From a virus (Duplodnaviria > Heunggongvirae > Uroviricota > Caudoviricetes): a DNA stretch of 4,217 nucleotides. Below are positions 734 to 2,228 of this stretch, piece after piece. The translations under genes were made by a program, and so were the position numbers. The DNA lies in IMG/VR virus record IMGVR_UViG_2671180846_000026; one strand, given 5' to 3'. Position 1 is the stretch's first letter. Each line of letters starts with the position of its first letter. The notes below the pieces were generated by a model. The model was not told where the DNA came from. It did no database searches and saw only the letters and a program-made list of their open reading frames with translations.

Positions 734-1399
734 TCAAACAAAACCAGCCGCTTTCCGGCGTTCATATTCCTGTTTCAGCAACTCAATTGGCGTTGGCCCC
801 GACGGGCGTTTGGGGGCCGCCAGTTGTCGCCGGACTGGCGGAACGCTCAGGCCGTTACTAACATGCTTTGCCCATTTCGTCAGTTGCCGTTCTGCAAGCC
901 GTTTTAATTCCCCTTCGGTCATCTGGCGCTCAATCCCCTTTGAACGCATCTCGAGGCAAATGTGATACAGCACAGGCTGAGACCACGGGTACTTATCACT
1001 TCCGTCGTATCGCCAGGACTCATTGCGCCAGCGGCGGTACTCCTCCATCACAGCATCCACCGTCAGACCGAATGGATTGGCTCCGCTTTTCGAAATCAGT
1101 GCCACAAACTCAGCCAGGTCCGGAGGCCATGTTTCACCCGCCCGGCAGCGGTCCATGCACTGGCGGCAGACCTGCCGGATTTGCTGCTCAGTCATCGCGC
1201 CAATCTGTGCAATCCAGAGCTTCGAAGGTGCGGCCCCGTTCTTCTGGATCCAGCGGTTCGAATAAACCACCCCCATGAGTTCCCACAGCTTCCAGGCCGT
1301 TTCCGTCGCTGATAAATCCGTTTTCACGTTCCCACTGCTCACGTGCTGCCCGAATTTCCTGAACTGCCCGTGATGCGGTGCCACCTGGTGCTGCTGCAT
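734..1399 (-). CDS. Replication protein P-like (lambda P family helicase loader)
   Basis: 221-codon ORF. ATG at 1399..1397 has an SD (AAGGGG, 6-nt spacer). C-terminal two-thirds resembles recalled lambda P (YPW motif, ELKR/ELRR, C-terminal KAAGFV vs KGASV region). Start is uncertain: in-frame ATGs at 1276 and 1195. The 1195 start forms ATGACTGA with the O-like stop, a coupling-type overlap; the 1399 start implies a 212-nt out-of-frame overlap with the O-like gene. Confidence 0.65.
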   Translation of the reverse strand: MQQHQVAPHHGQFRKFGQHVSSGNVKTDLSATETAWKLWELMGVVYSNRWIQKNGAAPSKLWIAQIGAMTEQQIRQVCRQCMDRCRAGETWPPDLAEFVALISKSGANPFGLTVDAVMEEYRRWRNESWRYDGSDKYPWSQPVLYHICLEMRSKGIERQMTEGELKRLAERQLTKWAKHVSNGLSVPPVRRQLAAPKRPSGPTPIELLKQEYERRKAAGFV

Positions 1400-2228
1400 G
1401 GTTTACCCCTTTGCTGACTGGTTTAACCTGCGCCCTGACGTGATTTACGTGACGGGCGAATTTCTGCTCCCACTGAATCTGCGTAAACACTTTCCCCTCC
1501 GCTGCCCAGTAGTCCCGGAAGGCGGCAAGTTCAGCAGGTGTAAATTCTGTCTCCGGCAAAGCCATCCCCCACAACGCAGCCCGTCGTCGAAAATCCCGTG
1601 ACGGATACCAGCTATCGCTCATCGGGAATTTTCCGATGGGTTCGCTCAGGCCATACAGGAATACAGGGGGGGCTGCCTGTAACGACAAAACTTCCTGCTC
1701 ACTGGTCGGAGCACTCTCGCGTGCGTTATGTGTGGGGTTTAGATCTTTGGGTTCCTTTGGGTTCCGTGATCCGTTTTTGGGTGTCTTTGATGGAAAATTT
1801 GGGTGTCTTTGGTTATTTTCCATGCAGCTAAGAGTTCTGTTTTTGGGTCTGTTTTGTGCTGAAACATAACCATTTTCGGTACTGTTTTTATTAACAGCAC
1901 CAATTTTACCCACCTTTAAAGACTCCCGTTTTTGGGTGTATTCAGGCTCGGCAACACTTTCTTCTACACCGATAAGTCGGTACACCACAATTTGCTTTGT
2001 TCTGCCTTTTCTCTCACCGGTATCAACAATTAACCCAATCTCCATCAGGTGTCGTAAGCTGTCCTGCACAGTCTTTTTGTTCAGTTCCGTTACTTCTGCC
2101 AGTGCAGATACAGACGGGTATGCACACAAATCGGCACCGCACATATCAGCAAGCCAGGTCAATACTGACTTACTGGATGAACTGCCGGTTTTCACCTTTT
2201 TAGCCCATCGTAGTGCATCGATACTCAT
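1188..2228 (-). CDS. Replication initiator, O-like (N-terminal HTH DNA-binding domain, low-complexity P/K/N-rich linker encoded by the iteron region, acidic C-terminal tail)
   Basis: ATG at 2228..2226 with SD (AGGGG, 5-nt spacer). The track's longer ORF begins at a TTG at 2303 with no support. N-terminus MSIDALRWAKKVK...LAEVTELNKKTVQDSLRHLMEIGLI is a typical phage replication-protein HTH. Sits between the cII-position gene and the P-like gene as in lambda O-P. Contains the iteron array. Stop TGA at 1190..1188. Confidence 0.7.
   Translation of the reverse strand: MSIDALRWAKKVKTGSSSSKSVLTWLADMCGADLCAYPSVSALAEVTELNKKTVQDSLRHLMEIGLIVDTGERKGRTKQIVVYRLIGVEESVAEPEYTQKRESLKVGKIGAVNKNSTENGYVSAQNRPKNRTLSCMENNQRHPNFPSKTPKNGSRNPKEPKDLNPTHNARESAPTSEQEVLSLQAAPPVFLYGLSEPIGKFPMSDSWYPSRDFRRRAALWGMALPETEFTPAELAAFRDYWAAEGKVFTQIQWEQKFARHVNHVRAQVKPVSKGVNHAAAPGGTASRAVQEIRAAREQWERENGFISDGNGLEAVGTHGGGLFEPLDPEERGRTFEALDCTDWRDD
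1745..1939. repeat. Iteron-like direct repeats plus AT-rich tract; putative phage origin of replication embedded in the O-like gene
   Basis: Core TTTGGGT at 1748, 1758, 1776, 1798, 1842 and 1931. Perfect tandem 10-mers CTTTGGGTTC at 1745..1754 and 1755..1764. Perfect 14-mers TTTGGGTGTCTTTG at 1776..1789 and 1798..1811 (22-bp period). AT-rich tract about 1860..1920. Same layout as the lambda ori inside gene O. Confidence 0.55.

Follow-up and report, generated by a model that had tools for sequence, protein, structure and literature searches.

The 4,217-nucleotide (nt) stretch of Caudoviricetes DNA held as IMG/VR record IMGVR_UViG_2671180846_000026 (the window, by which the whole of this stretch is meant) carries a replication module that belongs to a lambdoid (PPompW/Rac-like) prophage, in which a replication initiator gene is followed by P, the gene for a putative helicase loader. 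Comparison with related loci suggests, with a probability that we put at roughly 0.85, that P starts at the ATG at position 1399, 212 nt ahead of the initiator stop and in another reading frame, that this long overlap is conserved, and that selection upon it is split between its two parts. The overlap had been pointed out in a sequence-only reading of the window, whose coordinates (1188-1399, minus strand) proved correct: these 212 nt are common to the initiator and P open reading frames (ORFs), with P codon position 3 corresponding to initiator codon position 1.

The Start of P

Thirty-seven loci from different Enterobacterales species were compared, 35 of which are intact, L037 and L041 being frameshifted pseudogenes. 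In 33 of the 35 intact loci, the initiator ORF, at a +2 offset, extends 149-227 nt into the P ORF. The overlapping loci come from about 25 enterobacterial genera; start-site tallies were made on 34 overlapping loci, and a non-redundant set of 28 loci was obtained by thinning to <90% identity.

The ATG which opens the long form of P is kept in all 34 overlapping loci, and the letters A-T-G stand at the aligned position in 28/28 non-redundant loci. The initiator residues encoded across it vary (H, N, Y or D, followed by A, V, E or G). Because the A-T-G is invariant while these residues are not, it is the start codon that selection maintains, not the residues of the initiator. Across loci, the long start is preceded by a GGAGG-type Shine-Dalgarno (SD) sequence. 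In the window, where the sequence-only reading had seen a good SD ahead of the longest P-like ORF, this element is AAAGGGG, with an anti-SD duplex energy of -7.9 kcal/mol and a 6-nt spacer to the ATG at 1399; both the ATG and the SD are kept in relatives. The SD overlaps the initiator motif K-G-V in the window and T-G-G in relatives, and an in-frame TAA (1405-1403) lies just 5' of the opening of the P-frame ORF.

Two internal ATG codons of the P frame, Met42 (1276) and Met69 (1195), are the other candidate starts. The mean anti-SD energy is -9.3 kcal/mol at the long start (33/34 loci at or below -6 kcal/mol), compared with -5.3 kcal/mol at Met42 (50% of loci), -4.0 kcal/mol at Met69 (12%) and -3.0 kcal/mol at background in-frame positions (11%). 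Given the initiator protein, it is not significant that the P frame is open over codons 1-32 (probability 0.14-1.0), and this was not used as evidence. For these codons, the evidence is therefore the conserved ATG together with its SD.

Further into the protein, conservation becomes apparent on the P side. P-frame similarity goes to residue 38 of the long form or further in every locus, and the segment from residue 35 to residue 68 (AWxLWExMGEIYSNRWxxKNGxxPSxLWIAQIG), which lies upstream of Met69, counts among the better-conserved regions of P. Two of its tryptophans, W36 and W39, are conserved and both lie upstream of Met42. The P segment upstream of Met69 is still conserved in homologues down to 42-50% identity, and it also occurs in P genes without the overlap, namely those of phiV10, Tyrion, RothC, phi80 and lambda. 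The protein database contains many homologues of 212-223 amino acids (aa) that align over all 221 aa of the window protein. Homologues thus do not consistently start at the equivalent of 1195, where the sequence-only reading had seen an alternative start by classic translational coupling: the Met69-equivalent codon encodes L, F or C in 9/34 loci, and its SD signal does not rise above background.

Divided Constraint on the Two Frames

Within the overlap, the initiator frame contains no stop in 28/28 non-redundant loci; the same frame in the non-overlapping part of P has 214 stops in 4178 codons (5.1%). When each P protein was held fixed and its codons were resampled synonymously, the chance of an open initiator frame was 0.8-12% per locus (summed log10 = -39), and 6-57% per locus when only the 3' half was considered (summed log10 = -19), both sums treating loci as independent. 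In two orphan P genes, which have no initiator, the P motif is retained and the initiator frame has 2 and 7 stops in the first 75 codons. These orphan genes are themselves intact (L030, 2492-3118, 208 aa; L038, 2471-3040, 189 aa), lie beside ttcA-like and phosphotransferase system (PTS) transporter genes, and are probably remnants of decayed prophages.

Synonymous change was measured as the fraction of identical-residue pairs with different codons. Among all 28 distant loci, P-synonymous differences at codons 33-68 were 0.56 vs 0.59, a comparison which is saturated and offers little contrast, and the analysis was therefore redone in the closer Escherichia-Klebsiella-Pectobacterium clade. In this clade, P-synonymous differences amount to 0.24 (confidence interval (CI) 0.15-0.34) at P codons 1-32 and to 0.46 (CI 0.38-0.54) at codons 33-69, with 0.51 in P-only sequence. 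Initiator-synonymous differences over the same two intervals are 0.38 and 0.12, with 0.475 in initiator-only sequence. Purifying selection acts on both frames and is divided along the overlap, about 96 nt being ruled by the initiator and the following 116 nt or so by P. The sequence-only reading had found that both frames look coding, while noting that a real dual-coding segment of this length would be unusual. The unusual case is the one favoured here, since the initiator frame is stop-free and each half bears synonymous constraint, so that selection over 1188..1399 is not confined to one frame.

The two halves also differ in what they encode. In the 5' half, a helix-like initiator motif, SRAVQ(E/Q)IRAAREQWERENG (SRAVQQIRAAREQWERENG), lies over a variable, disordered P leader. 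In the 3' half, the conserved P motif given above makes up the opening helices of domain II, and the initiator tail encoded with it is open, Gly-rich and acidic, ending in ...GGGLFEPLDPEERGRTFEALDCTDWRDD and the stop codon. The net charge of this tail is under the synonymous-resampling mean in 28/28 loci (mean z = -2.3), which points to selection on the third codon positions of P for an acidic tail. At the amino-acid level, identity is 0.52-0.54 in the tail vs 0.50 in the adjoining initiator body. Among relatives, the initiator stop lies anywhere from P residue 58 to residue 82, in most cases at 70-71, and never ahead of the EPLDxEE(R/W) block. Where divergence is low, conservation of the overlap is 2-5 times that of either flank.

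Family and Predicted Fold of the Loader

From its sequence, P would be a loader of the DnaB helicase of the P type. It matches Pfam PF06992 (Phage_lambda_P) with 61.2 bits (cut-off 26; alignment from residue 60) and PHROG 109, 'P-like helicase loader', with E = 1.3e-61 (residues 19-220 to profile positions 22-235 of 236); no NCBIfam model matched P. In alignment, residue 86 of the window protein corresponds to residue 94 of lambda P. In the AlphaFold2 (AF2) model, residues 1-27 have a predicted local distance difference test (pLDDT) score <50 and are disordered, helices at 26-46, 48-54 and 60-67 have pLDDT 77-86, and helices over 26-181 are followed by a low-confidence linker and a C-terminal helix (204-217). 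A Foldseek comparison of this model with the full-length lambda P chain 9oa1_Z covered 219 columns (probability 1.0, E = 8.9e-6), with a high root-mean-square deviation. The Pfam, PHROG and Foldseek alignments bear out the earlier suggestion that similarity to lambda P extends upstream of 1195.

The structure of lambda P has a disordered lasso that contacts DnaB as its domain I (residues 1-29) and a compact domain II (about residues 30-119) (PMC12661323). The four-part lambda P architecture (N-terminal lasso, compact domains II and III, and C-terminal lasso) is matched by the 221-aa P only, and the P leader (codons 1-32) is the counterpart of domain I. As a Met69 start would cut inside lambda P domain II, the resulting 153-aa P would be without domain I and half of domain II (PMC12661323). 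Deletion of residues 9-86 of lambda P has been shown to abolish replication (PMC3640518).

Weighing the Alternatives

Several points weigh against a start at 1399 within a selected overlap. The evidence for the P start codon is comparative throughout, and current annotation disagrees with it: RefSeq, using the Prokaryotic Genome Annotation Pipeline (PGAP), gives a P of 153 aa from 1195 in E. coli genomes whose DNA identity lies between about 85% and 100%, and GenBank phage records give a P of 153, 140 or 136 aa. The loci whose probabilities were summed are related. The reduction of P-synonymous variation in the 3' half is slight and not significant, and because this variation stays near the P-only level, the distal part of the initiator tail is under little sequence constraint. 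In addition, the tail motifs EPLD and LDxxDW are largely forced by conserved P residues, mosaic recombination could add to the conservation of the overlap at low divergence, the AF2 model is of moderate quality (predicted template modelling score, pTM, 0.52), and the docking role suggested below for the tail is drawn by analogy with the lambda O C-terminal domain.

The alternative that survives best, although we consider it unlikely, is that two isoforms of P are made in the Escherichia-Klebsiella clade, a long one from 1399 and a short one from 1195 by reinitiation, which would differ in their contact with the initiator or DnaB. In-frame N-terminally truncated isoforms are common in phages, and in the window and 16 related loci the ATG at 1195 lies 5 nt upstream of the initiator stop. 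However, this arrangement is not conserved beyond the Escherichia-Klebsiella clade, and the short form would be without half of a compact domain (AF2 model; PMC12661323).

A second alternative, rather improbable in our view, accepts the overlap as real but regards the distal initiator tail (the last ~35 aa) as functionless read-on, with only P selected in this part. The near-normal P-synonymous variation at codons 33-69, the motifs mostly dictated by P codons and the variable position of the initiator stop are in line with such a possibility. Against it stand the stop-free frame in 28/28 loci despite the 3'-half chances given above, a tail more acidic than the null in every locus, the build-up of stops after initiator loss, and the EPLDxEE(R/W) block, before which no initiator ends.

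There is little to recommend a P start at ATG 1276 (Met42), which would leave the first 41 codons untranslated and reduce the overlap to 89 nt; a long out-of-frame overlap remains anyway. This codon is ATG in 32/34 loci, half of the loci show an SD-like match of -6 kcal/mol or stronger, and it is the start chosen by PGAP in Klebsiella, Citrobacter and Salmonella, where it gives annotations of 180-181 aa. However, it is CTG in L023 and L026, and the SD-like match derives from the W-E-V codons directly 5' of the ATG, which it abuts, with a spacer too short as read from the codons. Moreover, the conserved W36, L38 and W39 and a predicted helix (26-46) lie upstream, as does an ATG with a far stronger, well-spaced and near-universal SD.

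Finally, it is most improbable that P is made only from ATG 1195, by termination-reinitiation at the 8-nt ATGACTGA overlap and with the upstream P frame an untranslated by-product: PGAP and GenBank call this start in E. coli and in the phages Rac-SA53 and vB_Apl-pPE4, and the ATGA-type junction is kept in the Escherichia-Klebsiella clade (initiator stop at P residue 70 in 16 loci and the window), but its codon and SD are not maintained as seen above, the upstream P protein is conserved even in orphan P genes with initiator-frame stops and is present in non-overlapping lambda-type P genes, the PHROG 109 and Foldseek alignments begin at about residue 19, and domain II would be bisected (PMC12661323).

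The Initiator and Its Repeats

The label 'O-like', which the sequence-only reading had given to the initiator, holds for its position and role but not for its family. A Pfam search of the initiator gave no match to the lambda O family PF04492 (Phage_rep_O), so that the gene can be called O-like for its role but does not belong to that family. It has instead a DnaT domain (PF17948; 61 bits, cut-off 25) at residues 201-267. The NCBIfam DnaT model scores 93 bits, under its equivalog cut-off of 201, which indicates that the protein is not DnaT itself. At the N-terminus, HTH_36 reaches 20.9 bits where its cut-off is 25, and the protein also matches PHROG 1032/3992, 'replication initiation / primosomal protein'. 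The order of parts is an N-terminal helix-turn-helix (HTH; sub-threshold), a linker bearing iteron-like repeats, a DnaT-type domain and the C-terminal tail encoded within P. The RefSeq initiator WP_000020556.1 has the same coordinates as the window ORF.

Three repeat families lie at 1746-1942, including TTTGGGTGTCTTTG in three copies (1746-1811) and CCGTTTTTGGGTGT-type repeats in three copies (at 1764, 1830 and 1919). By analogy with ori-lambda, which lies within gene O, these iteron-like repeats are a probable candidate for the replication origin, and they lend context to naming the gene an initiator.

Several N-terminal types are joined to the same tail: HTH_36 with DnaT, HTH_36 with a lambda-O-like C-terminal region, Phage_rep_O (fused to this tail in L021), DUF1376, and unclassified ones. 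This tail is shared by at least four initiator types that are unrelated to one another. In an exhaustive search, the tail was C-terminal in proteins of about 317-360 aa only, barring fragments, low-complexity matches and one internal match in the 219-aa P0145. A homologue search with the 84-aa tail returned E. coli fragments only.

Gene Layout of the Module

The window is a 100% match to a prophage of Shiga-toxin-producing E. coli (STEC) strains and a 99.8% match to PPompW phages. The replication module is present in 1257/5426 complete E. coli genomes, among them O157:H7 and other Shiga-toxin-producing strains. A sequencing artefact can be ruled out, as the same or nearly the same sequence occurs in hundreds of complete genomes. 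The positions of the features discussed here are collected in Table 1.

Table 1. Positions in the window of the initiator and P genes, their signals and the parts of their overlap.
Feature	Position	Strand	Basis or remark
Replication initiator gene ('O-like', 346 aa)	1188..2228	-	ORF; ATG 2228, TGA 1190-1188
Initiator stop codon TGA	1188..1190	-	Sequence
Full-length gene for the putative P-type helicase loader, 221 aa (proposed true extent)	734..1399	-	Stop 736-734
Proposed P start codon ATG	1397..1399	-	Sequence and conservation
Shine-Dalgarno AAAGGGG for the long P start	1406..1412	-	Within initiator coding sequence
Internal ATG, P Met42	1274..1276	-	In P frame
Internal ATG, P Met69, in ATGACTGA spanning the initiator stop	1193..1195	-	RefSeq/GenBank start (153-aa P); possibly a secondary start, not that of the family
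Overlap 5' half, P codons 1-32	1304..1399	-	Initiator-dominated
Overlap 3' half, P codons 33-70	1188..1303	-	P-dominated
Iteron-like direct repeats in the initiator gene	1746..1942	.	Repeat search

Neighbouring genes are a cI-like repressor gene and YdaS-like, YdaT-like and DUF1627 genes. According to the RefSeq coordinates, the YdaT-like and initiator genes overlap by 29 nt (2200-2228), a second and shorter out-of-frame overlap in the operon. A run of 50 N at 2673-2722 masks the junction of the YdaS/Cro-like and YdaT-like genes and yields an artificial ORF of 228 aa (2200-2886), where the identical RefSeq record has two genes. Downstream of P, the identical RefSeq record for strain E2865 marks the DUF1627 gene (113-700) as a pseudogene with a frameshift; the ORF of this gene in the window has 195 aa vs 238-256 aa in relatives.

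Representation in Databases and the Literature

Besides the short forms described above, the protein database holds P versions of 212-223 aa and of 180-181 aa from other genera. As versions of 136 to 223 aa coexist, the annotation of P is inconsistent. The family phrog_15931 (482 positions) is matched by initiator residues 161-345 and by P residues 4-221, and was therefore apparently built on joined initiator-P ORFs. This profile raised the possibility of an initiator-P fusion made by programmed +1 frameshifting; the fused initiator-P ORFs that were seen are singletons or frameshifted pseudogenes (P0079, P0107 and L037); in L037, from Leclercia, the P frame changes to the initiator frame in the middle of the overlap (2438-2689). 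One locus, L044 (PP818812.1, 'Actinobacillus phage vB_Apl-pPE4'), carries a module with 92% nucleotide identity to E. coli prophages, which is unexpected for a Pasteurellaceae host; this may reflect a wrong host assignment or an induced E. coli prophage.

A literature search of limited coverage found no description of this overlap, which is absence of evidence only. The long P ORF itself is not new, since some gene callers predict it; its conserved dual coding and the divided constraint appear to be undescribed.

Proposed Mechanism and Implications

With P starting at 1399, ribosomes would enter P independently, using the strong SD that it has within the initiator message. Lambda O's C-terminal domain binds P. 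A construct of lambda O residues 156-299 was used in the work on the lambda P structure (PMC12661323). By analogy, the initiator tail of the window may be a docking element that recruits the P-DnaB complex. As this tail is encoded within the 5' end of P, recombination which moves P would bring the matching tail along, and the two partners would be genetically inseparable while origin-binding domains are swapped upstream. Such encoding would explain how at least four unrelated origin-binding N-terminal domains came to end in the same tail.

A further and tentative step, which we hold to be less probable than not, is to see the overlap as a self-contained specificity cassette, some 200 nt coding for both sides of the contact between initiator and loader. 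One frame would supply the initiator helix and acidic tail, and the other the P lasso and the first helices of domain II. Recombination would then never part the loader from its docking tail, and upstream of the tail any origin-binding domain could be joined on. Initiator-translating ribosomes crossing the P start site could, moreover, set the ratio of initiator to P. The VdhL loaders of Vibrionaceae may have this layout as well.

These considerations have practical consequences. In the E. coli genomes with this module, the annotated loader is missing residues 1-68, and studies of its structure, function or family profile would begin from a truncated sequence. Long same-strand overlaps in bacteria are usually regarded as mispredictions. 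An overlap found across two bacterial orders, with selection signatures and with orphan genes as an internal control, would be a well-documented case of split dual coding. It also leads to a testable proposal as to how unrelated initiators recruit one type of loader, and as to why recombination of initiator genes takes place upstream of a C-terminal module that stays fixed.

Comparison With Known Systems

The overlap is also found outside the Enterobacterales. In all five Vibrio phages examined (L047, L048 and L051-L053), the tail is similar and the overlap, at +2, measures about 190-230 nt, with a P that is 31-43% identical. As the overlap, about 150-230 nt long, is conserved in Enterobacterales and Vibrio phages, it defines a P subfamily present in two bacterial orders, which carries the motif WPPDLAEF where lambda-type loaders have FLPSPGQF. 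A relationship may exist between the P homologues of these Vibrio phages and the VdhL loaders. VdhL helicase loaders, which are phage-derived, have replaced DciA in Vibrionaceae, and a conserved upstream gene, OG4911, is always present (PMC11087808); the word 'overlap' does not occur in this paper.

The window resembles the lambda O-P pair in several respects. An initiator is followed by a P-type loader, downstream of cII/cro-like regulators; P belongs to PF06992/PHROG 109 and shares the overall length and domain order of lambda P; and iteron-like repeats lie in the initiator gene. In contrast to lambda, the window initiator is outside the lambda O family. The junction of the two genes also differs: in lambda, phi80 (genes 15/14), phiV10, Tyrion and RothC, the initiator and P overlap by 4 nt at a +1 offset, whereas the window and its relatives overlap by about 150-230 nt at +2. 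The initiators of lambda (L045) and phi80 (gene 15, L050) end in ...LD(L/F)xNTDW(I/A)YGV, the window tail in ...EALDCTDWRDD (1188-1230) and a Vibrio phage tail in ...IDLDNGDWSSK. This LD..DW ending may be a shared docking motif, or a coincidence, since it is largely forced by the P residues LWIAQIG.

In lambda, a read-through product, O', runs into the 5' coding region of P in the other frame (Yates et al., 1977, as cited in PMC3640518). According to that citation, O' requires UGA read-through, whereas the tail of the window is part of a normal conserved ORF. The possibility that O' is homologous to this tail was rejected, as the lambda frame is open for only 34 codons past the stop, has the other offset and shows no similarity. 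With ATGA-type coupled gene pairs, the window shares ATGACTGA at 1195-1188. Unlike in such pairs, the downstream ATG is missing in 9/34 loci, has an SD at background and lies inside a conserved, folded domain.

Long same-strand out-of-frame overlaps are known in phages from the lambda Rz/Rz1 spanins and from the A/B and D/E genes of phiX174. In these systems, genes are embedded and constraint is shared codon by codon, whereas in the window, known from its sequence, the overlap is terminal, joining the 3' end of one gene to the 5' end of the next, and constraint is split along its length. In all of them, two proteins are encoded by one stretch of DNA and both ORFs are conserved in relatives. 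The Rz and Rz1 products act together, as is proposed here for the initiator and P.

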